The notes: a model not told the origin generated them from the sequence alone. Shown: positions 11,191 through 62,795, counted from the stretch's first letter. The stretch: 64,000 nucleotides of DNA from a virus (IMGVR_UViG_3300046697_000246:1-64000); one strand, 5' to 3'. A program made the numbers and translations.

Positions 11191-11212
11191 TTTCAGGCCG
11201 GTTTTTCAACAA

Positions 11213-11243
11213 GCCCGTTCGCAAAAGCGCGAACGGGTCTTTT
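11213..11243 (+). terminator. rho-independent terminator
   Basis: GCCCGTTCGC-AAAAGC-GCGAACGGGT stem followed by CTTTT. Confidence 0.65.
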
Positions 11244-11331
11244 CGTTTTCAAGGTGGATTGAACCTAATGGAGCCTTTTATTTGCAAGGCAATATGGCCA
11301 TTTAGGTCGCGGAGTATTAAGCCCGATAGAA

Positions 11332-11345
11332 TGCCAAATATGGCA
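11332..11345. promoter_or_regulatory. palindromic operator TGCCA-N4-TGGCA (copy 1)
   Basis: ATGCCAAATATGGCAT in the scaffold-capsid intergenic region; recurs at 27376, 30553, 36764. Confidence 0.55.
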
Positions 11346-11448
11346 TCTTCAAAGAATGTGGAAAAATAATTCAACTTTCTTTCAGCAACCCTTGACGAAT
11401 TGAAAGATGCTGTTTGCGTAAAGTTTAACAATTGAACAACGAAAAATT

Positions 11449-30579: not shown

Positions 30580-33500
30580 TCAAAACGTAAGGCGAGGACG
30601 ATGTAACCGGAGCCGTGGCGCATGATGTCTAGCCAACGTCAGTCGCGGCCTTTTGAGCTTGGGTGCACGGTGACTGATTCTGAACGAAGATGGCCGGGCG
30701 CGGCGCAGCTTGGAAATCCGAATCTTTGGAGTGGCGTAGTGCAGGCGCGCGGCGGACGTGCGGCGTCCGAGCGACACCCGGCGGGGTTTGGAACGTCCAC
30801 CGGCGGGGGTATATCGCGCTGCCGTGGCTGCTGGGGCGGCTTTTCCTACACGGGCGGGCACTTGCACCCCAACTGCGGCCAAAGCCTGCGCGTTGGCCTG
30901 CTGGTAAGCGGCCTTGGCCTGCTGTGGCGTGGCTGATGACCCCAATTGGGCGAGATTTGCCTTCAAATACTGCCCGCGAAGCTCGGTGTATTTGTCCAAT
31001 TCAGCCGCCGTCATTGGCCGCATTGTGCCGCCGATGTCGTAACCCTTTGCGCCGTTGATGGATGGAGGACGGAAACCGCTTACAATCATGGCCTGATACG
31101 CCGCCGAATCAGCCTGATTTACGGCAGACTCGCCCGGCGACACGGGGAACGGATACGATCCGGCAGTAATCGCCTGGATGATGCGCTGGGCGTCGTTTGG
31201 CGTCCTGACGGGATCTCCCAAGGAATTGACCAGCCGCGCGCCGGAAGTGGGCAACGGCACGAGGTAATCGAACACAGACGCCATGTTCTTGTCCATCGAG
31301 ACGCCCATCATGCGCGAAACCTCCTGATACATGGGAACGAGCGGCAAAAGCGGGCTTGCTAGTGCCGCCGCAGTTTTCCTCGCGTTTGGCACCCCAAATT
31401 CGGAGTAACCGGACACGGCACCCGCCGCCGTTGAACCGCCTAAAATGGAGTTCCAAACCGCGGCGCCAGCAACAGCCAGCGTGTCGGCAACGTAGTTGTG
31501 CGGGATTGGGCTTCGCGCCAGTCCTTTCGCATCAGCCGCGGCGTCGGCATTTTTCTGCTGTGCCGCCCTTGCATCGGCGAGTCCAGCCGCCGCGCCCGCG
31601 CCGGCCACATAAGGCGCAATCAGGGAGAACGGCCCCACCGTCATGCTGAACGGCGTGAATGTCCCGTCGTCATGCAGCCATTCCACCGTGCCGACCTTGT
31701 GCCCTTCTTCGATGAATCTGTCACGATCCTTTTTGTCGGTCGGGTATTTCAGTTGCACCTTCAACTTGTGATTTAGAATCATCAGGACAACCGTGCTGCC
31801 GACGAGACTGCCGAAAACCGCCATTATCACGTTATGTTTCCGGTCAAGATCGGTTTCATTCGTGGCATGGGTTCCAACACCCTCCTTGCTGACATCACCC
31901 AAAAACAGTTTGTAGGCCGGAGTCAGGCGACCGTGAAAGTTTATCCCATTTCCGATGGCCTGTGAGAAATACGTCGGGATGAACGGCAGATTATGTTTGA
32001 CGGAGAATTGCCGCGCCGACTGCATCATCTTCGACACCGTTCCACCAAGGCTGCCCGCCGCCGGCGGAGACTGCCAAGCCTGGGACATACGCTGGCGCAG
32101 GATGTAAGCCCGCATCGCATCGGACGGCAGCCCCATCAACTCCATCTTCTGATACATCCGTTCCTTGACCAGATAATCAGCGGCCTCGGCCAATTCAGTG
32201 TTGGGAGCCTTCTTCCCGTCCTCTGCAAACGTGCGCCCGGAATCTATCAGCGCGAGCGCCCATTCTTTCTTCATGTCGCCAAAGTTGCCATTCCACGCCA
32301 TCTCGCTTTCCGCGCGAGTCTTTCCGTTCTTCGCCATCTCGACAAAGAACTGATGACGCAGTTCTTGAAACTCGACTTCTTCGCCCTGGAATGCGTCCAG
32401 CGCGCTCACGACGCGGATTGCGTATTTCCACTGGGCGATGAATCCGGTCATGGCCGCGCGTGAATAATCGCCCTTGGCGTAGTATTCCTTGGAAGCGAGT
32501 TCAGCGCGTTCCAGCGCGTTGATGCCCGTCATCATCCGGTCAATGTTTTGCTGTTTTCCGCGACCTGCCATCTGCGCCCGCGCCTGCCGCAGCCCCGGCC
32601 CCATAGATTGAATCCACTGTGATGCCGCTTCGGAATAAGCCTTGGAAACATTTTGATAAATGTCCAGTGGACGCCCCGCCTTTGCATTGGACCCGATTAG
32701 CTCCCACGCCATTGCCGGCGGACGAGTGGCGATCAGGGTCAAATACTGAAATTGCGTGTGCAACAGGAGCCGGACTGGGAATCCCCATTTCGCCAGCAGG
32801 TTTGCCGTTGTGAATTCAATGACGGCCTTGGACGTGTTCCTGCCGGCATCGGTTGGGTTGAACCACGAGAACGGCGGGATGGCCTTGCGCGGATCGGCTG
32901 ACAGCGGCTTGGTGAACTTTGCCCATTCACCAGCAAGTCGGCGGGTCAACTGGCTGATTTCGCTGGTGTTGATGGCTGTTCGTTCGCCATTGCGTCTTTC
33001 AATTTCAGCCGCCTTATCTTTATCCGTGGACATGGTATCGGCCTGAATTCTGGCGCGCTCGGCTGGCGACACGGTTTGCAGGGATTGGATTTTGGAAACC
33101 AGACCGCGCAGCTTTTCGACTTCTTCAGGTGAAGGCACATTCCAGCCGCGCAGCGCGGCAACCCGGCTCAACAACTGCCCGGTATCAGTTCCGCCCGCGT
33201 TGAAAAATTGGCTGATTCGATTCCACAGTTTAGAGTCGCCGGGCGGCATGGTCGCTATCTCGGCTGGAGTCATCGTTCTCACCGCCTCTTTCATTGCGCT
33301 TTCGCGGGCGAGCTTCAGGCGCGCGGTTAGCGCCGAATCCATCACTTTCCACGCGGCGGCGGCTTGTTCTGGCGGAACGCCAAGCTTGCCCACAAGTTGA
33401 CGCATGAATTCGGCCTTCATGCCGGCCTGATCCGCCGTCGGAGTGGCGAGAATCTTTTTGACCAGATCGCTGACTTTCGGGAGCAGGTTGCGAATGGCCG

Positions 33501-36500
33501 ATTTGCCAGCCACGCGGTTGATCATGTCACCGACGAGTCGCGGGTCGGCGAACAGACCGGCATTGACCTTTTGCGCCATCATTTCATCTGGCGTGAGTTT
33601 GTCCGGGTGCTTTGCAGCCTCGAACATCAGGTCGCGGACGCGCGGGCGAACAACGTCGTTGATCTGCTTCAACAACTGCTCGCGGATGACGCCGGAAACC
33701 TGCTTTTTCGTCTCCGCCGATACACCATCCAAATCAATGTTGTCTTGGATGTTTTTCAGATAAGCATCCAGCACGCGCTGAACCTCGGCATCGGGCTGTT
33801 TCGCCAGTTCTGTGATGCTGATGCGTGTATCCACCGGCTTGACCTTGGCCTGTTGGAAGCGCAAGCCTTTGAAATAACGCTCGGCGACGGAGCGCGCCAG
33901 CTTGACGGTGACGGGATCATACCCAGCCCATTCCTCGCGCATCCGTGCCCATTTCTCGAAGTTCGGCAGCTTCAATCCGGCCTCAATCTGCTCCGGTGTC
34001 GGCAGTTCACCCGCTTCGTAGCGGGCGTCAAGCTCGGCTATGGCATCGGCGTTGCCGGAAACCTCATTGCGCGCCGCCTGCTTGCCGGCCTCGATTTCGC
34101 CAGTCTCAACCGCCCGTTGAATTGCGGCTGTGATTTTGTCCTTGTTTGCGTCCGTGACCATCAGGCGCAACTTTTCCAGCGCGGACATCTTCTCTCCGGC
34201 CGGCGGCTCTTGGACGCCGTATTTCTTCAAAGATTCGAGGATGGTGTTCAATTCCTCTTGGAACAGGGCATTTTTCTCCATCTTGCCCGGTGAAGTCTTG
34301 GCCATACTCAACTTCTGCTGGACGGCGCGATACAGCCGGTCGCTCGCCGTCGCTTGATCGGCGGCAATCAGCTTGTTCAGGTCGGCTTCCATGCTCGGAT
34401 TGTCCTTGAGCATCTTCGCAATCTCGGCTTCGGTGAAGAATCCACGGAAATGCTCGACCAGCCGCTTGAAAAACGTCTCGTAAGCGCGCCCACCGAACGC
34501 CAGAGCGTAGGTCTTTTGCAGGAACACCGGGAGATTGGCCGCGACGGTGAGCAAATCCTTCTGGATGCCTTGAACGGAGCGCAACATCCAACCGCGCCAT
34601 GACGATTCACCGGATGAAATACCGATCAACTGGTTCGCCACGTCCTGCGACATGATTTTATACCAGCCGCCGTCGGGAGAGACGTTGTAATTGATGAACC
34701 GGACGAGTGCGGACGAATAGGCCGGATCTCCGCCGGGCGAATTCTGCTGCTGGATGGCCTGCGTCAACTCCTCAATCAGCTTGCTCCCCTCGGCATCGTG
34801 GTTGAACCCGTCCGGGGTGAGCATGGCGACGTTTTCCTCGTGCGGCTCGACGGGGAGCTTCAGGGAATTGATGAAAGCCAGTGCGCGGGCATCGCCTTGG
34901 CGCTTCTGCGCGGGTTGCAACAGGTCTTTGCCGAGCACCTTGTAATCGTTCCCGGCAATCTGCGTCTTGATGCCGTCATCTTGGTTGTCCGGCTCGGATT
35001 CGTCCGGCGGATTGGTCGAATACTTCGGTTCGCCTTGTCCCGTCAATTCCCCTTGAGATTTTGAGTATTCCGCCAAGGCGTCGGCCATTACATTGCGAGC
35101 GTGTTCGACATCCTTGAAGAACCGGCTGGAACCATATTTTCGCTGATTCAGCCAGTCCATGATGCCGTTCATCCACTTCACCATTTCAGAAACAACCTTC
35201 TGGAAAGTGGATGGTGCTTTTTGCGCGAAGCGTTGCCAGAAGGCAGGCTCGGTGATTTGGTCACCAAGTAAATCCGCCAGCGTTTCTTCCTCAATATCCT
35301 CCGGCTTGTAATACTGACCGTATTGTTTTTCCTGTCTCTGGCGCGATGCGGCCAAGTCATCTTTCAAAGCAGACTGAACCTCGGCATACAAATCAGGACG
35401 CTGAACCTTCATCGCGTGAAGCAGTTCATGTGCTGCCGGCCTAATCCACGGGTGAGGATCGTCAGCATTTACGAACAGAACGTCAGGTCGCGAAGGCAGA
35501 AATATCCCGCCACGGCTTTCGCCTTGGATGTTATCCCGGAAGAAAACGATCCTTTTACCAAATAGTTGTGCAAATCCATCAACTCCTCCCTTGAGAAGTT
35601 CCAACAACTGTGGATCGTTTGGTCTGACAGCAACAAGAGAATCTCCTCTGGTGTAGCGCGGGTCTTTTGTGGTAACTGCTCGCCTTGCTGATTCGACAAG
35701 GTTGGCATCAATGCTTGATTCATGGTCATCGTAACGGCCTTTCGGTTCGTTTGGTTCATTGGTTGAAAATTTGGGCGATTCCGGCGGTATCGGCGGTTGC
35801 TGCGGCGCGGCGGGTTGCGCGGCCTGCTGCACCTGATTCAAAATGTCGTTCGCCTCTTGCGGCTTCATCGCGTTGATTTGCGCCTCTGTGTAGCCGCGCG
35901 CCTTCAAATCAACCGTCATCTGTTTTGTGATGAGCAGCGGAACTTTGACACCGCCTTTCGGAATTGGCGGAGCCGATTTCGGCCTTTCTACCGGCTCATC
36001 TCCGTTCCAAATATCCGCCATGTCGCGGGCGTTTTCTTCAGTAGCCCCACCGTGGGCAATTTTTCCAGTCCTTGAATCTGTAACATCCCAAGCGCCAGAT
36101 TTGTTTTGAGACGCAACGAAGCGTTTTCCAAGCGGTGCTTCTTTTTGAGTGACATCAATGCCTGTAAAATCATTCACGGCTTTCACTGATAACGCAATCA
36201 ACTTTTTGAAAACAGCCGCCTCCTTCGGGGTCAATCCTTGCGGAAGAATGCCCTTTGTAATGTAATCGCCAAAGCTCCACCCTTCCGCTTTGAAATTGTC
36301 CATCTTCTGAATGAAGGACTCTGAACTGAAAGTGGCGCGTTCTTCTGGTGTCAATTCTTCCGCAACCAACTCCTCCATCATGCCGGTGACTTTTTCGTTG
36401 TCGCCAGCGTCAGCAGCTTTTTGAAGAAAGTCCTCAACGGCCTTGTTTTCAATCGCGTCCAAGCCGGATTCTTTTTGCAGCCTTGCACCCTCTTGAACGG

Positions 36501-36696
36501 CTTGATAGAGCGTTCTCCCTTTTGGATCGCGCCAAGTCTTGGCATCCAGCCCCAGCAAGCGGATGGAATTCTCAAGGTCTGGTAGGGTGTTATTGTTCCT
36601 GAAAAAAGCCACATAAGAGCGCGGCTCGCCAATGAATCCAACCAGCCGCTTCCAGGTGGCGGCACTTTTATTGGGACAGACAATGTTGACTGGCAT
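30580..36696 (-). CDS. large internal virion/ejection (polyvalent) protein with zincin metallopeptidase-like domain
   Basis: 2038 aa; AAHELLH HEXXH plus EETLAD; KFSTN/KYSTN linkers; Arg-rich C-terminus. Confidence 0.75.
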   Translation of the reverse strand: MPVNIVCPNKSAATWKRLVGFIGEPRSYVAFFRNNNTLPDLENSIRLLGLDAKTWRDPKGRTLYQAVQEGARLQKESGLDAIENKAVEDFLQKAADAGDNEKVTGMMEELVAEELTPEERATFSSESFIQKMDNFKAEGWSFGDYITKGILPQGLTPKEAAVFKKLIALSVKAVNDFTGIDVTQKEAPLGKRFVASQNKSGAWDVTDSRTGKIAHGGATEENARDMADIWNGDEPVERPKSAPPIPKGGVKVPLLITKQMTVDLKARGYTEAQINAMKPQEANDILNQVQQAAQPAAPQQPPIPPESPKFSTNEPNEPKGRYDDHESSIDANLVESARRAVTTKDPRYTRGDSLVAVRPNDPQLLELLKGGVDGFAQLFGKRIVFFRDNIQGESRGGIFLPSRPDVLFVNADDPHPWIRPAAHELLHAMKVQRPDLYAEVQSALKDDLAASRQRQEKQYGQYYKPEDIEEETLADLLGDQITEPAFWQRFAQKAPSTFQKVVSEMVKWMNGIMDWLNQRKYGSSRFFKDVEHARNVMADALAEYSKSQGELTGQGEPKYSTNPPDESEPDNQDDGIKTQIAGNDYKVLGKDLLQPAQKRQGDARALAFINSLKLPVEPHEENVAMLTPDGFNHDAEGSKLIEELTQAIQQQNSPGGDPAYSSALVRFINYNVSPDGGWYKIMSQDVANQLIGISSGESSWRGWMLRSVQGIQKDLLTVAANLPVFLQKTYALAFGGRAYETFFKRLVEHFRGFFTEAEIAKMLKDNPSMEADLNKLIAADQATASDRLYRAVQQKLSMAKTSPGKMEKNALFQEELNTILESLKKYGVQEPPAGEKMSALEKLRLMVTDANKDKITAAIQRAVETGEIEAGKQAARNEVSGNADAIAELDARYEAGELPTPEQIEAGLKLPNFEKWARMREEWAGYDPVTVKLARSVAERYFKGLRFQQAKVKPVDTRISITELAKQPDAEVQRVLDAYLKNIQDNIDLDGVSAETKKQVSGVIREQLLKQINDVVRPRVRDLMFEAAKHPDKLTPDEMMAQKVNAGLFADPRLVGDMINRVAGKSAIRNLLPKVSDLVKKILATPTADQAGMKAEFMRQLVGKLGVPPEQAAAAWKVMDSALTARLKLARESAMKEAVRTMTPAEIATMPPGDSKLWNRISQFFNAGGTDTGQLLSRVAALRGWNVPSPEEVEKLRGLVSKIQSLQTVSPAERARIQADTMSTDKDKAAEIERRNGERTAINTSEISQLTRRLAGEWAKFTKPLSADPRKAIPPFSWFNPTDAGRNTSKAVIEFTTANLLAKWGFPVRLLLHTQFQYLTLIATRPPAMAWELIGSNAKAGRPLDIYQNVSKAYSEAASQWIQSMGPGLRQARAQMAGRGKQQNIDRMMTGINALERAELASKEYYAKGDYSRAAMTGFIAQWKYAIRVVSALDAFQGEEVEFQELRHQFFVEMAKNGKTRAESEMAWNGNFGDMKKEWALALIDSGRTFAEDGKKAPNTELAEAADYLVKERMYQKMELMGLPSDAMRAYILRQRMSQAWQSPPAAGSLGGTVSKMMQSARQFSVKHNLPFIPTYFSQAIGNGINFHGRLTPAYKLFLGDVSKEGVGTHATNETDLDRKHNVIMAVFGSLVGSTVVLMILNHKLKVQLKYPTDKKDRDRFIEEGHKVGTVEWLHDDGTFTPFSMTVGPFSLIAPYVAGAGAAAGLADARAAQQKNADAAADAKGLARSPIPHNYVADTLAVAGAAVWNSILGGSTAAGAVSGYSEFGVPNARKTAAALASPLLPLVPMYQEVSRMMGVSMDKNMASVFDYLVPLPTSGARLVNSLGDPVRTPNDAQRIIQAITAGSYPFPVSPGESAVNQADSAAYQAMIVSGFRPPSINGAKGYDIGGTMRPMTAAELDKYTELRGQYLKANLAQLGSSATPQQAKAAYQQANAQALAAVGVQVPARVGKAAPAATAARYTPAGGRSKPRRVSLGRRTSAARLHYATPKIRISKLRRARPSSFRISHRAPKLKRPRLTLARHHAPRLRLHRPRLTF

Positions 36697-55293: not shown

Positions 55294-55460
55294 AAAATTT
55301 TGGGTTGGCGTTTTAGGCAATCTTCAATTCCACGCTTCATCATGTCATTAGCGAGCGAAGGAGTTGAAAGTGAAAGCCCAAGTTGTTTTTTTAATTTTGC
55401 CAGCAACGCCCAATTATCCGGCGTTACTCGAACCCTGTTATGTTTGTCGCATTTGCTCAT
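55290..55460 (-). CDS. small RHH-like regulator
   Basis: RVRVTPDNWALLAKLK..GLS; coupled to the HNH gene. Confidence 0.5.
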   Translation of the reverse strand: MSKCDKHNRVRVTPDNWALLAKLKKQLGLSLSTPSLANDMMKRGIEDCLKRQPKIL

Positions 55461-55559
55461 GGCACACAATGTATCGTAGTGGGTTAATATGGTCAACAGA
55501 TTTTTTTCCGCTCGGCGTCGGATTGTTCTGGTGGACGGGTTTTCATAAAGTTTTCAGGT

Positions 55560-55826
55560 TCACGCCCGCATTAAAACCTGCTGGACTTTCTTGCCGGCCA
55601 AAGTCGGGCTGATTGTCCAGCCGCCATTCGGAAGTTTGTAGGTGCTGAACTGCATCTGTGGTTGGTCTTTTAGTTTTATGGTGACAACGACATCAGGCCG
55701 GATTTTAGGGCGAAACACACTCTCGTTTTCCGGGATCAATTCGGATGCGGCCTTGTGCTGGTAATACGCAGCAATGTTGCCCCGACGAATCGCCGCCTTC
55801 CAAGTGCTTGAATGAAAACGAGACAT
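55560..55826 (-). CDS. hypothetical protein
   Basis: 88-aa ORF starting at the left boundary site of the cassette array. Confidence 0.55.
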   Translation of the reverse strand: MSRFHSSTWKAAIRRGNIAAYYQHKAASELIPENESVFRPKIRPDVVVTIKLKDQPQMQFSTYKLPNGGWTISPTLAGKKVQQVLMRA

Positions 55827-55870
55827 AAATGTTAAGTGATTTTCACTTCGGCTTATCAGCTATGTTAGCC
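55818..55870 (+). repeat. left boundary site (attI-like or decayed attC)
   Basis: GCTTATC-AGCTAT-GTTAGCC; GTTAGCCGTCAC (55864-75) complements GTGACGGCTAAC (56575-86); no intact AAC arm. Confidence 0.6.
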
Positions 55871-56157
55871 GTCACTAGCTGGCTCTTTGGCGGGTAGCCT
55901 GATGCCTCGTCACATACACGCTGCATCCATTCCGCCAATGTCAGATTGTGCAGCCGTGCCATTCGCACATACCAGTTCTTGCGCGCCATCACGACGCGCA
56001 GGTGGATGTGTCCTGTGGCAGCTACGCTGTCATTCAGCGGACGACCAGCCCCGCGTCCTAGGTCGGCGGTTTTAGCGCCACGGGGCCGGTCGTGAGATTC
56101 TTCGTGGCATCGGACGCATACGTCCGAGTCTTTGCCGTGTTCGCATTTGTGGGCCAT
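55843..56157 (-). CDS. cassette gene: RHH-like regulator, paralog of 1835..2050
   Basis: Shared GRPL.D.VAATGHIHLRV..ARK.WYVR.ARL.N.TLAEWMQ..CD..S.YPPK. Confidence 0.7.
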   Translation of the reverse strand: MAHKCEHGKDSDVCVRCHEESHDRPRGAKTADLGRGAGRPLNDSVAATGHIHLRVVMARKNWYVRMARLHNLTLAEWMQRVCDEASGYPPKSQLVTANIADKPK

Positions 56158-56158
56158 A

Positions 56159-56404
56159 TTATTTCAGCAGCTTGGCGACTTCGGAGGCGATGCGGCTATT
56201 GTGCGGCTCGCCGATATTGTCAGCCGTCCACCATCCACGGCGCGAGGCTCGGCAGTCGCCCGGCGCGCAGCCGTATCCGCACTTGCATTGCGGATCGGAA
56301 TGATTGACGTGGGTTGCTCCGGTAGCAGCCTCGATCTTGCTGACGATTTTGCGGGACAGGAATCCGTCGTGGCATCCGAAGATATATTCGCTTGAGGTTG
56401 TCAT
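56159..56404 (-). CDS. cassette gene: Cys-rich hypothetical protein
   Basis: CKCGYGC..C; downstream of the cassette promoter. Confidence 0.6.
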   Translation of the reverse strand: MTTSSEYIFGCHDGFLSRKIVSKIEAATGATHVNHSDPQCKCGYGCAPGDCRASRRGWWTADNIGEPHNSRIASEVAKLLK

Positions 56405-56475
56405 ATTTTTGTCTGTGTTGTTTGTTCACTTCCCGGATTCGCCGGGGCGATTTGTTGGTTTCTTCCAACACAGAT

Positions 56476-56504
56476 AGTTTCGCATTTCATCTTCATTTTG
56501 TCAA
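56476..56504 (-). promoter_or_regulatory. cassette-internal promoter TTGACA-N17-GAAACT
   Basis: Consensus -35; shares 15 bp with the promoter at 3398. Confidence 0.6.
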
Positions 56505-56579
56505 CACATTATTATCAGATTTTTACGATTTATTTTGCCCTTGAAAACATTGACGATTTTAGTGTTTTTCGCCCGTGAC

Positions 56580-56669
56580 GGCTAACAAATCGGTGCAGCC
56601 AATGCCGGTTGGCGCTCTCAGCCAAGTCCGGGCGTCACTGGCCCGGCATGGCTGACCTCTGCGTTGGGT
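56580..56669 (+). repeat. attC-like site 1
   Basis: GGCTAAC..CAGCCAATGCCGG..CCGGCATGGCTG..GTTGGGT. Confidence 0.85.
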
Positions 56670-56780
56670 GCAGAAAAGTTTCATGCGGATTCTCCATGCG
56701 CTTGCGGGCGTTTGCCGCTGCGCCGAGTTTGCCAAGTCTTGAGGCGTTTCCTTTGTGAAACCTGCCATGTCTAGCGGTGA

Positions 56781-56802
56781 TTATTATATCAGCCTGTTGG
56801 GC
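56781..56802 (+). repeat. second attI-like simple site
   Basis: TATCAGCCT-GTTGGGC; GTTGGGCGGCACA (56796-808) complements TGTGCCGCCCAAC (57262-74); no hairpin arm upstream. Confidence 0.55.
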
Positions 56803-56835
56803 GGCACAGCGCACGCGCACTGTGCCGCGTGAGTT

Positions 56836-57282
56836 TTATTTGTTTCGGGTAGCTTCAAGGATTGGCAGGTTGGCTTCGGTCGGCACATAGACCACGGTTT
56901 TATCCGTGCCTTGCGCGGCCACGTCGTTGATCCAGAGGTAGCGGAGATACGCTTCGTTGTTTTTCAGCGATTCGCCGATTATCTGGTTTGCTTTTGCGAC
57001 ACCACCAGCGCGGATTACTTCCGCTTGCGCCAGCAGTTCCGCCGATTCCATTTTGGCCTTCGCTTCGGCCACGGCCACTTCTTTTGCGGACTGAGCGTGT
57101 GCCAGCATTGCCTGGCCGAGTGCGCGGCTCGCATAGATGTTGTATTGAGGATACGCCCACATTGCGCCGAAGATTACGACGCCGATTGCCACGATTGATG
57201 CGACGATCCAGCCCGCGTAGTTTGGTTCACCATTTTCTTTCATTGTTGTGTGTCTTTCGATTGTGCCGCCCAACAACCGCAT
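56836..57282 (-). CDS. cassette gene: membrane-anchored SPFH-like coiled-coil protein
   Basis: Transmembrane helix, EAKAKMESA..AEVIRA.GVAKANQIIG.SL..YLRYLWI..VVYVPTEANLPILEA. Confidence 0.7.
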   Translation of the reverse strand: MRLLGGTIERHTTMKENGEPNYAGWIVASIVAIGVVIFGAMWAYPQYNIYASRALGQAMLAHAQSAKEVAVAEAKAKMESAELLAQAEVIRAGGVAKANQIIGESLKNNEAYLRYLWINDVAAQGTDKTVVYVPTEANLPILEATRNK

Positions 57283-57376
57283 GGAGCCAATGCGGGTTGG
57301 ACGCGCAGTTTATTTCGTTGAGGCTCCAGATTGTTTCACGGTTTCAGTCCCGCATGGCTCATGCGGAGCGTTAGAC
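57268..57376 (+). repeat. attC-like site 2
   Basis: GCCCAAC..CCGCATGGAGCCAATGCGGG..CCCGCATGGCTCATGCGG..GTTAGAC. Confidence 0.9.
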
Positions 57377-57516
57377 AGCCGGGCGGAGCGTTTTGCTTTA
57401 CGGCGAGCTTTTTGAAGTGCGGCCTGTTGCGCTGGCGTGATTATCCGCGTGCGCTTACGTTTCTTCGGGCCTTGCGCGCCCCACCGCTTGAAATCTTCTG
57501 ACGTGTAGGTTTTCAA
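57310..57516 (-). CDS. cassette gene: small basic protein
   Basis: K/R-rich; reads into attC2. Confidence 0.55.
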   Translation of the reverse strand: MKTYTSEDFKRWGAQGPKKRKRTRIITPAQQAALQKARRKAKRSARLSNAPHEPCGTETVKQSGASTK

Positions 57517-57836
57517 AATTGGTGCCGGTCTTTATGGGTTTCATCCCAATGTTCTTTTGCGTGGCAGTTACCGCAAAGTAATTCGCATTTAGAAATCTCA
57601 ATCTTAACCTTTTCTAAAGACTTTGTTTGCGCTAAAAGCCTGTTCACTCTATCCACTTTCGTTGATGGGTCAATATGGTGGAACTGCAAACAGGCCGGAT
57701 GAGATTCACCGCACCTTTTACAGCCTGACAATTTAACACCCAACACATACGCCCTTAATTTAGCTCTGTGAGCGGACTGCCGCTTACGCTCACTCTCTTT
57801 GTAGAGATGTAAATTTTCACGCCCGATGTAACTCAT
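57513..57836 (-). CDS. cassette gene: small zinc-binding HNH endonuclease
   Basis: CKRCG..LQFHH.DP..KCELLCGNCH..EH. Confidence 0.85.
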   Translation of the reverse strand: MSYIGRENLHLYKESERKRQSAHRAKLRAYVLGVKLSGCKRCGESHPACLQFHHIDPSTKVDRVNRLLAQTKSLEKVKIEISKCELLCGNCHAKEHWDETHKDRHQF

Positions 57837-57844
57837 AAATTTAT

Positions 57845-58160
57845 TGCGGGTCTTTCCCCGCTGTCATCACCTTCGGACGATCAATCCAATCCACGGCCAC
57901 GGTGCGGGCCTGTCCCAGCTTCGGTTGCTGCTCCACTTCCGGCATTGTTGATGCCAGTTCCTCACGCGGGGCTATGAGTCGGAACCGCCGGAGGCTTTCG
58001 CCAAATTATCTCCGGACTTTCACGCCGTCCGGCTGGCGGCTCTTACGTTAGACAGATTCCGCGCTCTGCCGTGCTTTCGTGCGGCTCAGTTTATTTTATA
58101 CTCACTTCACTGGAGCCGACTCCGTTTTTCACAAGTCGCACTGCCGGTTTCCCGCGTGCA
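57845..58160 (-). ncRNA. putative structured ncRNA upstream of the HNH gene
   Basis: No convincing ORF; several stems with GAAA/GUGA loops on the minus strand; promoter-like TTGATT-N16-TATAAA at 58167-58194. Confidence 0.6.
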
Positions 58161-58233
58161 AGATTATTTATATCATATCCCCGTTACGAATCAAACTCTT
58201 TTTTGATTTATTTTCGTGAATCGCAAACCGGCT

Positions 58234-58330
58234 GTCTAACAACGCGCTGGAACCAACGCCCATTATCGCTGTCAGTCCGCTACGCGGGTCATTCCTCAAG
58301 CTGGGCGTGGTTCAGCTTGAGGCGTTAGAC
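58234..58330 (+). repeat. attC-like site 3
   Basis: GTCTAAC..GCTGGAACCAACGCCCA..TGGGCGTGGTTCAGC..GTTAGAC. Confidence 0.9.
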
Positions 58331-58590
58331 GGCTCGGCGAGCGCCTCGCGCGCTATGTCGCCAAGTCCGAAACTGCGGATGCTTTGCGATTCTTCGGACT
58401 CGATGATTTCTTCGAGTGCTTTTTTGTAGCGCTTCACATTCTCACCGAGCGCAAAAATTTGTCTGGCATCGGCTCGAATCAGCCTGTCAGATTCAAGCAG
58501 TTCGCCGATGAGTTGCAGTTTTGACACCTTTTTGTATCGTGCGGCGACTGTAATTTGTTCGCCGAATGTTTGTTCGCTCATAGAGTTCAT
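58312..58590 (-). CDS. cassette gene: coiled-coil hypothetical protein
   Basis: YKKALEEI...IAREAL; stop lies inside attC3. Confidence 0.6.
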   Translation of the reverse strand: MNSMSEQTFGEQITVAARYKKVSKLQLIGELLESDRLIRADARQIFALGENVKRYKKALEEIIESEESQSIRSFGLGDIAREALAEPSNASS

Positions 58591-58811
58591 TTGTTCCTTT
58601 TCACGAGGCGTTCAGCCTCGAACTTGGTCAGCCCTATTGCCAGCTTGGTCACTTTTCCGAACTTGGTCACTTTCACCACCATCCAAGCGTTTCCTACCGT
58701 CGAGCATGGTTTTATTTGAAGTTTCATATTTTCAATTCGCCGTCTAACAACCGCATGAAGCCAATGCGGTTGGGCGTCTCTGGTTTGACGGGAAGTCTCT
58801 GGTGATTTCAT
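58587..58811 (-). CDS. cassette gene: hypothetical protein
   Basis: Start inside attC4 loop; ATGA-coupled to the next gene. Confidence 0.55.
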   Translation of the reverse strand: MKSPETSRQTRDAQPHWLHAVVRRRIENMKLQIKPCSTVGNAWMVVKVTKFGKVTKLAIGLTKFEAERLVKRNK

Positions 58812-58847
58812 GGTTTGGTGTCCGCGTCGCTTATGCGGACGTTAGAC
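58742..58847 (+). repeat. attC-like site 4
   Basis: GTCTAAC..CCGCATGAAGC..GCTTATGCGG..GTTAGAC. Confidence 0.9.
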
Positions 58848-58857
58848 GGCTTCAGTA

Positions 58858-59232
58858 TCACCAGTCTATGAGTATCGTGTGTTCACCGGCTTCAAGCAGC
58901 CCTTTGGCATGGAGGTCATTTGCCACCATTTGCAGGTCAGGGTAGAAGTTTCTATCCCACCAAAGTCCCAGGCTGTAGTCCGTTCGCCCATCGGCCAGCG
59001 CTTTTTTTGGATCTCTTGCGAGCCACGCCGCGAAGCTCACGCCCTTTTCTTCATGGTTCACTTTTTCCGGCACAGTTGTTCGCTCGTGGTCACTTGCTTC
59101 GGATGGCACGTCTATTACCACCGTTCCGCGACTCATGCAGCCATCCTGTTGCTGTAGATTGTAGGGGCGTCCGTAGGTTTTCACCACGAGCGCATCCCAT
59201 TCCGACACTTCGATCACTTGTTTTGTTTTCAT
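58858..59232 (-). CDS. cassette gene: conserved-looking phage hypothetical protein
   Basis: YGRPYNLQQQDGC..WWDRNFYP..ANDLH..G..I.IDW. Confidence 0.7.
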   Translation of the reverse strand: MKTKQVIEVSEWDALVVKTYGRPYNLQQQDGCMSRGTVVIDVPSEASDHERTTVPEKVNHEEKGVSFAAWLARDPKKALADGRTDYSLGLWWDRNFYPDLQMVANDLHAKGLLEAGEHTILIDW

Positions 59233-59253
59233 ATTTGTTTATCGCTGTTCGCC

Positions 59254-59352
59254 GTCTAACAACTCACTCCAGCCAACCGGCGTTACGACTTGCCGTCCGC
59301 CTTCGCGGGCGACGCGCCTCGGTCGCCGGTGGCTGAGTTCGAGGCGTTCTCC
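59254..59352 (+). repeat. attC-like site 5
   Basis: GTCTAAC..ACTCCAGCCAACCGGCG..CGCCGGTGGCTGAGT..GTTCTCC. Confidence 0.9.
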
Positions 59353-59576
59353 GGCACGAGTCCTTTGTATTTATGGAGTTGGTAGCGGAGGTGTTGGATT
59401 AGCGCGGCGCAGTTTTTCCCATCATCACCAAAGTCTCGTAAGGCGGCTTCGGCTTGCCACATTTGAGCGGTTGCCTGTGCGATGTGAGACATGACGTGTT
59501 CGCGTGCCGGAGAACAAGTCGCTGCACCCGCAACTGCCGCTGCCCGTTTCCGATTCTTGGCTTTTATTTTGGTCAT
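59283..59576 (-). CDS. cassette gene: hypothetical protein
   Basis: Starts in attC6, stops in attC5. Confidence 0.55.
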   Translation of the reverse strand: MTKIKAKNRKRAAAVAGAATCSPAREHVMSHIAQATAQMWQAEAALRDFGDDGKNCAALIQHLRYQLHKYKGLVPENASNSATGDRGASPAKADGKS

Positions 59577-59636
59577 AAAGTTTCAGTGCCGCCCACGGTC
59601 GCGCTCGGCGGCAGTGGGGTGAGCTTCACGTTCGGC
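59509..59636 (+). repeat. attC-like site 6
   Basis: GGAGAAC..GCTGCACCCGCAACTGCCGC..GCGGCAGTGGGGTGAGC..GTTCGGC. Confidence 0.85.
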
Positions 59637-59640
59637 GTCT

Positions 59641-60288
59641 TCATTTTCGCGCCTCCGGTTTATCGTAGGGCAGTCCGACGAAAGCAAAGACGGCTTCCTC
59701 GGATTCCATCGCTCGCGCTTCGTCACCCCGCGAGAATCCCGCACCGTATGGATTCCATTTCCATCCGCGTTCCTGCGCGGACATGCAGATGCGCGTGTTG
59801 CTGTCCGCCGGGCCGGTTCGGCAGACGAGATAGTTGTGCCAGTTCTCCGCCGTCGCCGCGAAGAAGTCCACGGGCAGCCCGGTGGCACGGTGGCGCATCA
59901 GTTTATTTTTCGCGCCATACATTTCCGATCCGTTCACATTCTTGCGCCGTTCCAGCACGCCGGATTTTTCGAGCGCGGCGATTACTTCGTCCGCGAGATT
60001 TACCGTGATGCTGGCGAACATATCGGCAGGGTCTTGGCGCTCTTCGGTTTTTCCGATGTAGAGGATTTCAGCATCGCCCACGGTGGTCTTTCGCCGGCGC
60101 AGTGAGCCAGCGACGACGAGGCGCTCACAGACTGGCTTGAGCGCCGCGCAGAGTTCCGCAGCCACCTTCATTCCAACGGCGTTGTCGAAGCGAGGTTTCT
60201 GTCCAGACGCCGAACACATCGCTGCACCCGCAATGACTGCTGCGGTCACAGTTTTCGGCGATGGTGGCGTTTTTGGCGCAGCAGTCAT
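59641..60288 (-). CDS. cassette gene: minimal DNA polymerase X (palm and thumb)
   Basis: VAGSLRRRK.TVGDAEIL, PVDFF, RTGP and SEEAVFAFVGLPY..PEAR PolX motifs. Confidence 0.85.
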   Translation of the reverse strand: MTAAPKTPPSPKTVTAAVIAGAAMCSASGQKPRFDNAVGMKVAAELCAALKPVCERLVVAGSLRRRKTTVGDAEILYIGKTEERQDPADMFASITVNLADEVIAALEKSGVLERRKNVNGSEMYGAKNKLMRHRATGLPVDFFAATAENWHNYLVCRTGPADSNTRICMSAQERGWKWNPYGAGFSRGDEARAMESEEAVFAFVGLPYDKPEARK

Positions 60289-60309
60289 GGGGTGAGCTTT
60301 GCGTTCGGC
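60209..60309 (+). repeat. attC-like site 7
   Basis: GCCGAAC..GCTGCACCCGCAATGACTGCTGCG..CGCAGCAGTCATGGGGTGAGC..GTTCGGC. Confidence 0.9.
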
Positions 60310-60527
60310 TGCTTTATTGCTTGGGCATTCCAGTTGCGGCGGGCGGTGTGGCGAGTCCACGCCATTTTTCCGCTCCGACCGCATTTGGGACATAGCAGCC
60401 AGATCAGTCCGCCGCCACCGTCCCATATCGGGAGCGTTCCACAGTTACACGGCAGCAGCCGAACAAGCCTGCCGGAGCCAACCGTGGTTGGCCGTCTCTT
60501 TTTATTCGCTACGGATTTCTTTTTCAT
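60285..60527 (-). CDS. cassette gene: Lar (restriction alleviation)-like zinc finger
   Basis: LLPCNCG...CPKCG...ARRNWN. Confidence 0.65.
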   Translation of the reverse strand: MKKKSVANKKRRPTTVGSGRLVRLLPCNCGTLPIWDGGGGLIWLLCPKCGRSGKMAWTRHTARRNWNAQAIKQPNAKLTP

Positions 60528-60568
60528 AAAGTCTCTAGTCCACGGCGGCGCATCAGGCACCGTTCGGC
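60458..60568 (+). repeat. attC-like site 8
   Basis: GCCGAAC..GCCTG..GCCAACCGTGG..CCACGGCGGC..CAGGC..GTTCGGC. Confidence 0.8.
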
Positions 60569-61095
60569 TTCTGATACACGATCCAGTGTGTTCGGGTGTT
60601 TCCGACCCGCTGACCAAATAGCGGCTTCTGGTCGGTGAGCGACAAAACGGTTGTCAGCTTCACCCGATGTTCATTCCATTTGAAAACGAGCGTTCCCAGA
60701 GGACACAGGACGCGGAAGCATTCACGGAAGCCGGCCGAGATTTCGTTGCGCCAGTCGAGCGGAAGGCTTCCGTATTTCTTTATCGTCCTTCCGTTCGGCC
60801 CGCACCAGGTATGCGGCGGGTCGAATACGACGAGCGCGAAAGTGCAGTCAGGGAATGGCAGTTCCTTGAAGTTTGCCAGCACGTCGGGATTTACGACGAT
60901 GCTTGCCGGTTTCGGGCCGGTGTGGTCTATAAGCGTTTCGCGGCGCTTATCCACGAACAGAGCGCGAGGGTCTGATTTATCAAACCAGAACATCCGACTC
61001 CCGCAGCACGCATCCAGCACAGAAGCCGAACAAGTCCTTGGAGGCAAAGACGCCACGCCTTGCGCTCCATCATTGATTTCAATTTGAGTATTCAT
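60553..61095 (-). CDS. cassette gene: SAM-dependent methyltransferase
   Basis: VLDACCGSRMFWFDK, FDPPH, ECFRVL..GTLVFKWNE. Confidence 0.85.
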   Translation of the reverse strand: MNTQIEINDGAQGVASLPPRTCSASVLDACCGSRMFWFDKSDPRALFVDKRRETLIDHTGPKPASIVVNPDVLANFKELPFPDCTFALVVFDPPHTWCGPNGRTIKKYGSLPLDWRNEISAGFRECFRVLCPLGTLVFKWNEHRVKLTTVLSLTDQKPLFGQRVGNTRTHWIVYQKPNGA

Positions 61096-61146
61096 TTTAC
61101 GTTCGAGGCGGCGCTGTCGGCGTCTTGCCTCAAGTCTGCGTTCGGC
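61025..61146 (+). repeat. attC-like site 9
   Basis: GCCGAAC..CTTGGAGGCAAAGACGCC..GGCGTCTTGCCTCAAG..GTTCGGC. Confidence 0.9.
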
Positions 61147-61544
61147 GAAATGAATTGCACCGGCAGCCCCATCTCGTTTGCGATGGCGATTTCACCCGCA
61201 ACGCCTTTTGATTCCTTCCAGCCGTCGAGTGTCAGCACGATCATCGCGCAGCACGCGGCGAGGATGGCGCGGTCATACGCCTGCCAGTATTCCCACCCCA
61301 GAGGCAGATCACCGGCCAGCGCAATTGGATGCGTGTGGCTGATAGGCGAGTAGATGTGCATTCCCTTCCGCATCAGTTCCGCCGCCGCCGCGTTGACGGC
61401 TCGGAAGCGTCCTTCCCGCACCGATGCGTCTGGGTGCGAGTATGGGGTTGCGAGATATACGAGCGTTTTCGCCGAACAAGCGGATGCAGGCAACAGCCGC
61501 TGGCCATCTGGTTTTTCAAGTGTTGATTCCATATTCAAAGTCAT
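61092..61544 (-). CDS. cassette gene: DUF1937 / nucleoside deoxyribosyltransferase-like protein
   Basis: VYLATPYSH, YSPISHTH, GWKESKGV.GEI. Confidence 0.8.
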   Translation of the reverse strand: MTLNMESTLEKPDGQRLLPASACSAKTLVYLATPYSHPDASVREGRFRAVNAAAAELMRKGMHIYSPISHTHPIALAGDLPLGWEYWQAYDRAILAACCAMIVLTLDGWKESKGVAGEIAIANEMGLPVQFISPNADLRQDADSAASNVK

Positions 61545-61583
61545 TTGGTCTTCGGCGGCTGTGCCTGATCCGCAGCGTTCGGC
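61471..61583 (+). repeat. attC-like site 10
   Basis: GCCGAAC..GCGGATGCAGGCAACAGCCGC..GCGGCTGTGCCTGATCCGC..GTTCGGC. Confidence 0.9.
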
Positions 61584-61590
61584 GGCATTT

Positions 61591-61839
61591 TCATTCGATG
61601 CAAACAATACGCTCGGAGCCGCATTCAGGACACACGAGTTTCCCGCCGGCCACGCATGGCATTCGTTCCTCTCCGCAGTTATGGCAGCCGTGATATTTTC
61701 CGCAGGCTTGTTCTACGCTCAACGTTGCCGCCGAACAAACCGTTGCAGATAATTCGCTCTGCGCCTTCTGTTCTCGCTGCTCTCGTCGGCGAGCAACGCG
61801 CGCATACACGAGGATGGATGTTGGGTCAAAGTCGCTCAT
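61591..61839 (-). CDS. cassette gene: small zinc-ribbon protein
   Basis: CHNC...CPECGS; starts in attC11. Confidence 0.6.
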   Translation of the reverse strand: MSDFDPTSILVYARVARRREQREQKAQSELSATVCSAATLSVEQACGKYHGCHNCGEERMPCVAGGKLVCPECGSERIVCIE

Positions 61840-61860
61840 ATCTGAACTTTCTCGTTAGCC
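61730..61860 (+). repeat. attC-like site 11
   Basis: GCCGAAC..GTTGCAGATA..TATCTGAAC..GTTAGCC. Confidence 0.75.
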
Positions 61861-62144
61861 ATCGGTTCGACATCCACGCCTTTCATTCCAAGAAACGCTT
61901 TTCCGTGGATTGGGCATACAAACATATCGAAGTGGTGCTTGTGACTTCGGACGCGCCACTCAGCCTTGTTCTCGCAGAGTTCGCGGTCAGCTATGACCAT
62001 ACACGTCCGCTGGCTAACCCGGCGCTGCTGCGAATCCGTGCCTCGCTTTACGGACAACGGCATCATCACCATTTCGCGGCACCATCCGGCACAGTAGCCG
62101 TCATCCGTCACCAGTTCTTTTTTGCATTTTGGACACGTTCTCAT
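61836..62144 (-). CDS. cassette gene: Cys-rich hypothetical protein
   Basis: CPKC..CAGWC..CPIH; starts in attC12, stops in attC11. Confidence 0.6.
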   Translation of the reverse strand: MRTCPKCKKELVTDDGYCAGWCREMVMMPLSVKRGTDSQQRRVSQRTCMVIADRELCENKAEWRVRSHKHHFDMFVCPIHGKAFLGMKGVDVEPMANEKVQI

Positions 62145-62210
62145 ATTCGTTATTTTCCTTTGCGCTCCACATCCGCCGCCGGCACGGATCGCAGAGCTTG
62201 GTCGTTAAGC
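62012..62210 (+). repeat. attC-like site 12 (199 bp, expanded coding loop)
   Basis: GGCTAAC..CTGCGAATCCGTGCC..GGCACGGATCGCAG..GTTAAGC. Confidence 0.8.
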
Positions 62211-62483
62211 CGCTAGCTTCAGTTTGTGGCAGTTTTTTATTTCCTCACAACATTGCGGACAAGTTATCGCTTGCGGTGGGACATTCTCCCAAGCGGATTG
62301 ATCTTGCTCATTTCCGGTCGCAGTTCCATCGAACGCTTGCCCGCAGATGGTAAATTCCGAATTGAGAGCACTTATCCGGTGGACAAATCCATCACCTGTT
62401 TTTCCGAAGCCCGTATTCTTTCGGGGCCGCGGCTTAACCCGTCGCTGCTGCGGACACGGCTTGGCGTCTTGGGATTTGCTCAT
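62205..62483 (-). CDS. cassette gene: zinc-binding hypothetical protein
   Basis: VH...TICG...ITCPQC; stop TAA lies in the core site of attC12. Confidence 0.6.
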   Translation of the reverse strand: MSKSQDAKPCPQQRRVKPRPRKNTGFGKTGDGFVHRISALNSEFTICGQAFDGTATGNEQDQSAWENVPPQAITCPQCCEEIKNCHKLKLAA

Positions 62484-62540
62484 AAGGTTTCTGGTTTGCC
62501 TGCGTCCCCATGTGCCGGGTCGCAGAGCGCGTCGTTCGGC
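62432..62540 (+). repeat. attC-like site 13
   Basis: GCTTAAC..CGCTGCTGCGGACACGGC..GCCGGGTCGCAGAGCG..GTTCGGC. Confidence 0.8.
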
Positions 62541-62795
62541 CTATTCAGTTTTTTCGAGCCATTTCGCATATTTTTGCGCGGCTTCCTTGACGGCTTCTTC
62601 GAGTGTTTCTTTGCTTTTGGATTCACAGTAGCAGTCACCATGTATTGTAACACAGTAGCCACGACCAGCCCCCATTAACTTGAACATCTTGACCTCTTGC
62701 CCATCATCTAGTGCAGGCGCCAACGACTCTTGGCGATTTCCGTTCGATGTTTTTTTCTTCATTGGTTCTTTTGATTGTGATTTTTTAATTTTCAT
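62541..62795 (-). CDS. hypothetical protein
   Basis: ORF ending immediately at the attC13 core site. Confidence 0.5.
   Translation of the reverse strand: MKIKKSQSKEPMKKKTSNGNRQESLAPALDDGQEVKMFKLMGAGRGYCVTIHGDCYCESKSKETLEEAVKEAAQKYAKWLEKTE

Follow-up and report, generated by a model that had tools for sequence, protein, structure and literature searches.

Integrons are taught as series of open reading frames (ORFs), each followed by an attC recombination site that lies outside the gene; here we describe reversed arrays that would recombine inside a codon. According to the sections of Nivina 2016 (PMC5027507) on which we draw, the attC hairpin has bulged bases at positions 16 and 23/24 that are separated by a 6-bp stem. 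The array that we analysed lies at 55.86-62.54 kb of a viral DNA stretch of 64,000 nucleotides (nt) (IMGVR_UViG_3300046697_000246:1-64000, hereafter the window), which makes up the first 64 kb of an IMG/VR virus record of 73,290 bp with a rated completeness of 95%. Its small genes alternate with, or run into, 13 elements that are 90-131 nt long, apart from a doubtful one of 199 nt. On the plus strand each element carries NNNNAAC at its start (the R'' core) and GTTNNNN at its end (the R' core). We report the attC identity and orientation of these elements, a frame rule at their junctions, the exchange of protein tails between cassettes, and a polymorphism in which two cassettes are removed at a G|TT joint. 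With a probability of roughly three in four, judged from sequence, the array is a phage-borne, integron-type cluster of attC sites without an integrase (CALIN) in which the genes occupy the attC bottom strand, are joined in an AA|C phase and receive their C-terminal tails from their neighbours.

The likeness to the canonical attC, as set out in the same sections of Nivina 2016 (PMC5027507), comprises the imperfect hairpin with AAC/GTT cores, the bulges at 16 and 23/24 and the 6-bp stem, a bottom-strand crossover at R' between A and C, a hybrid R' that matches the next cassette, and the same polarity relative to the integrase gene intI. The layout of the cassettes is different from the one described there. 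In the window the ORF is on the bottom strand, so that a gene comes after its own attC, which contains the start codon; the end of the gene crosses the crossover point, and both hairpin arms are coding. The sites themselves also depart from the canonical form in two respects, since the core pair GCCGAAC/GTTCGGC is off consensus and bottom-strand position 16 is mostly C, not G.

CALINs have been described in virulent or uncharacterised phages (Qi et al. 2023, PMC9892861) and, in the part of that work used here, their cargo includes methyltransferase cassettes, as does that of the window. In phage TJE1 from the same study, the two attCs that our finder detected follow closely on their genes and share their coding strand, and the TAA of R'' serves as the stop of orf3; this is the canonical orientation, unlike that of the window. 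The portion of the article's text that we cite contains nothing on inverted ORFs, on reading frames at the crossover or on tails. Translation across a crossover has a precedent in ORF-11/ORF-18 of attI1, for which the cited passages of PMC8876359 describe a short ORF that spans the crossover, takes an in-phase stop from the inserted cassette and acts on the next gene through translational coupling. The case concerns a single leader ORF, at the attI of a class 1 integron, whereas the window has full-length cassette genes at attC x attC junctions that follow a common phase rule. According to the same passages (PMC8876359), short ORFs in attC relieve the block imposed by the stem-loop through termination-reinitiation, which resembles the window in that translation passes through the hairpin and restarts at the start of the next cassette; those cases involve a top-strand transcript and single sites, whereas in the window the transcript is that of the bottom strand and the start lies between the arms. 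We found no report in the literature of bottom-strand cassette ORFs, a crossover phase rule or neighbour-encoded tails, and the supplements of Qi et al. 2023 may list ORF orientations.

Clusters of attC sites in phages are already published, and the inverted in-frame architecture with its frame rule appears to be new as far as we have found. Small accessory genes separated by repeated, shuffling hairpin modules also occur in the PeSL cassettes of T4-type phages, where the modules combine promoter and terminator and are exchanged by homologous recombination; we know of no AAC/GTT cores, hybrid-core signature or integrase link in PeSL. Placing an attC inside coding sequence is an engineering goal, and Nivina and colleagues reportedly embedded synthetic attC sites in coding sequence in 2020; those are engineered sites, and the window would be the natural precedent.

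Identity, polarity and integrase context of the attC sites

The repeats of the window read as integron attC sites because of their invariant AAC/GTT, their bulge positions, their folding and their hybrid cores. AAC and GTT are invariant in the 12 elements that were aligned (the MAFFT alignment misaligns the 3' arms, and no covariance model was made from it). All 13 of the 5' arms have one plus-strand layout, namely a 7-mer, 2 nt, 6 nt, a G or C at position 16, a further 6 nt and an A at position 23 or 24, and these bulged-base positions and the 6-bp spacing agree with the consulted part of Nivina 2016 (PMC5027507). On the bottom strand the T at 23 is the consensus base, and position 16 is mostly C instead of the consensus G. 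The predicted folds of the elements at 57268, 58234, 60209, 60458, 61025 and 61471 have single-base bulges on the R''-L'' arm. When the bottom strands of 12 elements (element 12 left out) were compared with 200 shuffles, 8 of the 12 folded better, with z from -2.48 to -6.46. The R' 7-mer is the exact reverse complement of the next R'' in 12 of 13 cases in the window, and of its own R'' in 6 of 13; across viral arrays, 82 of 121 R' 4-mers match the next R'', compared with 28 of 147 that match their own R''. Such a match is the hybrid-core signature of cassette joining. The core class GTCTAAC/GTTAGAC conforms to the RYYYAAC/GTTRRRY consensus.

The finder combines a weight matrix of the plus-strand 5' arms of the window with a constrained fold; for weak elements, which in the window are those at 56580, 61730 and 62012, it sets the partner in the wrong place or overlooks it. 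A search of Rfam gave no match at E <= 0.1, and as far as that search shows Rfam has no attC family. A two-core gapped pattern was tried and rejected: by our estimate its 119 single matches are about what chance would give, and the finder placed at least two attCs in just 2 of the 119 loci.

In a motif scan of one genome per species, arrays occurred mainly in Verrucomicrobiota and other PVC-group assemblies, and 4 of 5 Verrucomicrobiota-type genomes carrying the same attC family, which are those of likely hosts, have an IntI above the NCBIfam cut-off. Three arrays (L440, with 23 attCs, L441 and L442) lie downstream of intI with their top polarity directed away from it, and the 13 attCs of a viral contig (G002) have the same polarity relative to intI. 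By the polarity of L440-L442, the top strand of the attCs corresponds to the plus strand of the window, whose genes thus occupy the bottom strand. The arrangement of a canonical cassette, an ORF on the attC top strand with the attC 3' of it, was not found in the window. The L440 locus itself (G006:C3, 9120-19673, Verrucomicrobiae) has intI followed by at least 23 near-identical attCs (GCCTAAC ... GTTAGGC) in 9 kb, and is a large sedentary integron of the same attC family.

The 73,290-bp record has no match to the tyrosine recombinase family PF00589, and it is for this reason that we class the array as a putative CALIN. No integron integrase was found in three practically complete phages of this type, G000 (95% complete), G001 (100%, with terminal repeats) and G004 (100%), the ORFs flanking the array have no NCBIfam match, and a related-locus search found no relative of the flanking DUF5131 protein in viral contigs. 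The window does not hold a complete integron, that is, an array with intI beside it, attI and Pc. An IntI is encoded on the viral contig G002 (45.6 kb, 63% complete), in which locus L443 (G002:C1, 4378-12017) has IntI at 11022-12017 and 13 attCs upstream. This protein scores 290 bits against TIGR02249 (cut-off 265), and the bottom strand of the contig carries the cassette ORFs, which have the same direction as intI and read towards it. Shuffling of the window array could be carried out by an integron integrase supplied by the host or by a related phage.

Reading frame at the cassette junctions

All three minus-strand frames were walked through each GTT half-site of the window. The first-pass annotation had claimed that each gene reading through its junction places the GTT core in frame as an AAC (Asn) codon, and this holds for all eight genes that it named: the core is read as TAN at 55864, LSN at 57370, PSN at 58324, PEN at 59346, QPN at 60303, KPN at 60562, SPN at 61140 and MAN at 61854, and reading continues for 2-20 codons. 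The same walk bears out its statement that the remaining genes end before or at the junction. Those at 58858-59232, 59641-60426 and 61591-61839 have stops 4 to 17 nt before the core, the TAG stop of the gene at 62541-62795 abuts the core, and the stop of the gene at 62205-62483 is the TAA within a GTTAAGC core (62204). Behind the three early-stopping genes, mini-ORFs read the core as AAC (58841, 59630, 61577); the stop of the gene overlaps their start in ATGA or GTGA, and their own stop overlaps the next start in ATGA. Since four of the eight cores are GTTA and leave two frames, and the other four leave three, the chance of eight out of eight is P = (1/2)^4 x (1/3)^4 = 8e-4. On the start side, the leaders at 60213, 61029, 61475, 61734 and 59513 read the R'' core as TGT TCN, with Cys-Ser near the N-terminus, and three other start-side leaders have the R'' GTT in frame.

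A wider census drew on viral contigs matched by the 5'-arm motif and on relatives of a methyltransferase-like gene of the window. It comprised 29 loci with at least three attCs (with four redundant pieces), loci with fewer being excluded, and the attCs of each locus are all on one strand. The frame was called as the bottom-strand frame with the longest open run on the body side, of at least 40 codons, and the attC side was not used. Among 146 distinct viral elements, 97 were in the AAC frame (frame 0), 5 in frame 1 and 8 in frame 2, 20 stopped at a TAA in the core and 16 fell in none of these classes; with body-side near-duplicates removed (n = 138) the numbers are 92, 5, 8, 20 and 13. Tabulated over homologous arrays, junction frames are not random, and the AAC frame prevails as had been anticipated. 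The caveat entered at that time, that a TAA stop in one alternative frame partly biases the count, is lifted by the census, because the bias stays in cores without TAA, 49 of 61 of which are read in the AAC frame (P = 6e-14). Of the 22 arrays with at least two read-through junctions, 21 have most of them in the AAC frame. At R'', the non-crossover core, the frames of the downstream genes are even (41/30/38, none in 37). In 140 of 146 elements the attC itself contains the frame-0 stop; for the other two frames the numbers are 99 and 85.

This bias might be a by-product of constraint on the core sequence, or of common descent, that has no link to recombination or translation. The core does fix the last two codons (P, S or A, then N), but the residues preceding this pair are unrelated, and frames 1 and 2, although open across cores without TAA, are used in just 4 and 8 of 61. 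Many attCs fall in few families with identical arms, and a mild excess of frame 0 is present in bacterial arrays too; the bias nevertheless outlasts the removal of near-duplicates, recurs in 21 of 22 arrays, and was counted from the body side alone, not from the attC. We regard a by-product of this kind as quite improbable.

It is also conceivable that GC-rich DNA, with its long open frames, has given spurious read-through ORFs and that the genes are really on the top strand. Top-strand frames of at least 40 codons reach R'' in 113 of 146 viral elements, yet they are evenly spread (43/39/31), as antisense noise would be, and the viral arrays carry their AAC-frame signal on the bottom strand and no frame signal on the other. 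Where bacterial arrays of this attC family have a long top-strand ORF, it stops at the TAA of the R'' core in 30 of 51 cases, an ending that is not seen as a signal in viral arrays. Six minus-strand genes of the window are backed by Pfam, PHROG or tblastn relatives. Genes on the top strand would, on this evidence, be very surprising indeed, and we retain the bottom-strand assignment.

Crossover point and exchange of tails

Contigs of four other metagenomes (X4-X7) were aligned to the window; joints with fewer than 31 letters on one side, or with an unresolved interval between, were not used. One X7 contig (depth 5.27) is near-identical to the window (1,523 of 1,667 letters aligned, 1 differing letter) and covers 55419-55863, then 57370-57526, then 57849-58769. 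The joint from 55863 to 57370 has 5 shared letters (GTTAG) and 157 letters on one side, and it takes out exactly two units of gene body plus right attC. The deletion variant is this one contig; a second run has the same joint with 29 letters on one side and was not counted. In the variant, the LSN gene ends in IADKPK* (asterisks mark stop codons), which is the tail of the TAN gene in the window, instead of APHEPCGTETVKQSGASTK*. Because of this joint, of an array order that opens with a gene body and closes with an attC, and of a frame rule confined to R', we place the probable crossover at R' G|TT, as in canonical integrons. The variant also lacks 57527-57848 and with it an HNH gene; the two sides of this joint share 7 letters (GGTCTTT), and the difference resembles gain or loss of a homing endonuclease, independent of the attC system.

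The first-pass annotation had further proposed that tails and stop codons are donated by whichever cassette is adjacent, and that the same gene should have different tails after the Asn in different phages. Both are supported. Identical tails stand behind unrelated genes, ADLRQDADSAASNVK behind two genes, EKS behind six and VES behind four, and DKIQP, IKAER and VCMSHGGH behind two unrelated genes each. The methyltransferase-like gene of the window ends in GA*, and its counterpart in L120 ends in DQADLPPR*. L120 is a complete phage of 71.6 kb that has terminal repeats and no detectable backbone similarity over the 20-kb locus compared; the body of the gene (60561-61034) has 89% nt identity to the L120 copy. 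Another gene ends in VES in L120 and in IRS in the array L274. Together with the LSN-IADKPK* gene of the X7 variant and the R'-only rule, these cases argue for donation of tails and stops by the neighbouring cassette. The tails are probably functionless in themselves and provide termination inside the hairpin. Donation works only with genes on the attC bottom strand, inverted with respect to canonical cassettes.

Homology ending at both cores

Several observations weigh against a CALIN that recombines at R' in a single phase. Four of the 12 window elements fold no better than shuffles (z -1.62, -0.05, -0.46 and +0.78), and the GCCGAAC/GTTCGGC cores are off the RYYYAAC/GTTRRRY consensus at the position adjoining the triplet. 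Gene calls in the census were made by ORF length, a noisy classifier that gave three false other-frame cases in the window; these are spurious overlapping frames behind early-stopping genes, and the classifier is conservative. Bacterial control arrays also lean to frame 0 on the bottom strand (25/14/5). ATGA coupling between genes is not universal, 41 of 100 frame-0 junctions having no overlap in any frame, and the raw overlap count of frame 2 is similar to that of frame 0. Finally, the homology between diverged copies of a gene breaks off at both cores, and the start-side attC differs too. Homology is confined between the cores for window 60561-61034 versus L120 (89% nt) and for cassette 7 of L120 versus cassette 7 of L264 (87%), runs X4, X5 and X6 hold a diverged 59352-59522 body with about 13 changed letters, and the pair L214/L272 has in common an attC and the body on the tail side of that attC. 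The diverged copies and the L214/L272 pair are not accounted for by recombination at R' alone; candidate explanations are occasional top-strand (R'') recombination, short-homology exchange at the arms, or the repeated pairing of a gene with a common attC family. The 59352-59522 variant occurs in X4-X6 at 2 to 20 times the phage depth with other flanks on both sides; given these foreign flanks and the depth, it is abundant in another context.

The main rival explanation takes the body between the cores as the mobile module and the hairpins as linkers, with exchange at both cores, either through recombination of both attC strands or through recombination between short homologies in the conserved arms, in the way that T4-type phages shuffle regulatory cassettes. 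On this view the frame rule would reflect body-to-linker compatibility and not cassette-to-cassette joining. Three independent diverged gene copies that are homologous only between cores fit this explanation, as does the attC shared along with the tail-side body in L214/L272, and top-strand recombination at R'' is noted for some attCs, too, in the part of Nivina 2016 (PMC5027507) cited here. Exchange at R'' would, however, need a frame rule there, and R'' has none (41/30/38). The sole near-identical variant differs by whole body-plus-right-attC units joined at G|TT, and the window array opens with a body and closes with an attC. Moreover, attC families common to many cassettes could mimic replacement, since the interiors of unrelated attCs have a background identity of up to 95%. 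High-scoring segment pairs between arrays have end-points that mostly mirror attC family similarity, and the near-identical locus pairs among the arrays are overlapping pieces with no indels. We consider body modules unlikely, though less so than the other two alternatives, and prefer an integron-type array recombining at R'.

Proposed mechanism and implications

We propose that the array is made up of 13 units, each a gene body with the attC to its right, joined at G|TT. With the genes on the bottom (recombinogenic) strand, the start of a gene would adjoin or sit in its own attC and its end would fall in the attC of the neighbour; in the arrays as a whole, 78 of 109 cases have an in-frame ATG within the attC. 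The cut would be made inside the Asn codon (AA|C), a phase that nearly all cassettes appear to hold, and each attC would also carry a stop in that phase, such that any cassette order could give a terminated protein with a short neighbour-encoded tail. Where the tail stop overlaps the next ATG, between the arms, the upstream ribosome might open the hairpin and restart on the next gene. Seven frame-0 reads of the window end in an ATGA overlap with a start codon between the hairpin arms (their stops begin at 58808, 59573, 60285, 61092, 61541, 61836 and 62480), and the stop overlaps a start opening at least 40 codons at 30 of 100 frame-0 junctions overall and at 7 window junctions. Translational coupling as a universal rule was rejected on this count and on the like raw counts of frame 2. 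It is possible that the frame rule is kept by selection for termination and translational coupling.

A phase convention of this kind keeps every permutation of the cassettes translatable. Integron finders and gene callers presume the canonical orientation and would truncate or mis-start such genes. The arrays also link the shuffling of phage accessory genes to Verrucomicrobiota-type host integrons of peat, permafrost and freshwater, and the phage cassette cargo includes methyltransferase, polymerase-like, DUF1937 and HNH genes. Whether they represent lineage-spanning phage 'mirror' integrons, with bottom-strand ORFs, attCs that code on both arms and one AA|C phase rule, is in our judgement an even bet. 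If so, 'mirror' integrons would be a natural in-frame site-specific recombination system, and phage cassettes would be expressible in phages and silent behind a bacterial Pc, with the reverse for bacterial cassettes. At least one 'mirror' phage contig has its own IntI, transcribed in the direction of the cassettes.

Elements and genes of the array

The left boundary core (GTTAGCC, 55864-55870, plus strand) has no hairpin on its left, and cassette 1 runs from 55865. It has 12 nt complementary to 56575-56586 and is the joint of the X7 deletion variant; given the lack of a hairpin to its left, it acts as an attI-like or secondary-site junction. The elements follow with the plus strand as top strand. 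AttC 1 (GGCTAAC ... GTTGGGT, 56580-56669) has a fold z of -2.48, and attC 2 (GCCCAAC ... GTTAGAC, 57268-57376, z = -2.66) has at 57370 the R' that forms the right joint of the X7 variant. Cores GTCTAAC ... GTTAGAC are found in attC 3 (58234-58330, z = -3.19) and attC 4 (58742-58847, z = -3.34). AttC 5 (GTCTAAC ... GTTCTCC, 59254-59352, z = -1.62) has 88.5% identity to an attC of L120, and in attC 6 (GGAGAAC ... GTTCGGC, 59509-59636, z = -0.05) the arms pair and the overall fold is weak. Four elements have cores GCCGAAC ... GTTCGGC, namely attC 7 (60209-60309, z = -5.32), attC 8 (60458-60568, z = -2.85), attC 9 (61025-61146, z = -3.48) and attC 10 (61471-61583, z = -6.46). AttC 11 (GCCGAAC ... 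GTTAGCC, 61730-61860, z = +0.78) has a typical 5' arm and, in view of its weak fold, may be degenerate. The doubtful long element 12 (GGCTAAC ... GTTAAGC, 62012-62210, 199 nt) contains the start of the gene at 61836-62144. The last element is attC 13 (GCTTAAC ... GTTCGGC, 62432-62540, z = -0.46), which is abutted by the backbone gene at 62541-62795.

The window encodes a large terminase and a DUF5131 protein, and from 63.8 kb down to 53.8 kb its plausible genes are all on the minus strand, as are the genes given here. The TAN gene (55843-56157) takes its tail IADKPK* from the backbone left of the array. The phrog_11227 'protease' gene (56836-57282) has its stop 170 nt before the core; the match covers residues 24-148, from which its real start is probably the ATG at 57244, and this protease-like gene is the only match of the array to cultured phages by blastn. 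The small LSN gene (57310-57516) has a 19-aa tail, APHEPCGTETVKQSGASTK*, from attC 2. This gene call, of 68 aa and with a TTG start, is the weakest; the ORF is kept at 90% nt in L274 and is present in the X7 variant as well. The HNH endonuclease gene missing from that variant (57513-57836) lies inside a cassette. The PSN gene (58312-58590) has the tail ASS* from attC 3, and the phrog_27943 gene (58858-59232), a full-length match, has its own stop ahead of the core. The PEN gene (59283-59576) takes a 20-aa tail from attC 5 and has its ATG within attC 6.

A gene with DNA polymerase beta thumb and palm domains (59641-60426) has its own stop 4 nt before the core and probably a coupled start at 60288. 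The zinc-ribbon-like QPN gene (60285-60527) has the tail AKLTP* from attC 7, and its stop overlaps the ATG of the next gene (60286-60288). The methyltransferase-like KPN gene (60553-61095) ends in GA* and has its ATG within attC 9. The DUF1937 gene (SPN, 61092-61544) has a 15-aa tail, ADLRQDADSAASNVK*, from attC 9, with a stop that overlaps the ATG at 61093-61095, and the MAN gene (61836-62144) has the tail EKVQI* from attC 11, with a stop that overlaps the ATG at 61837-61839. Of the bridging mini-ORFs, that at 58808-58861 has a GTGA overlap with the stop of 58858-59232 and ends in ATGA with the ATG at 58809-58811; MKTPN-VKLTPLPPSATVGGTETL (59573-59644) and MKMPPN-AADQAQPPKTK (61541-61594) have an ATGA overlap at each end.

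The interval 57837-58233 (about 400 nt) has no long minus-strand ORF and contains an orphan GTTAGAC half-site at 58047 that lacks a partner arm. Outside the array, a minus-strand ORF of 2,038 aa lies at 30580-36696, and G002 likewise has an ORF of 2,158 aa. The array, of which some peat and permafrost runs have 30-90%, was found whole or in part in peat, permafrost and freshwater metagenomes of many studies.

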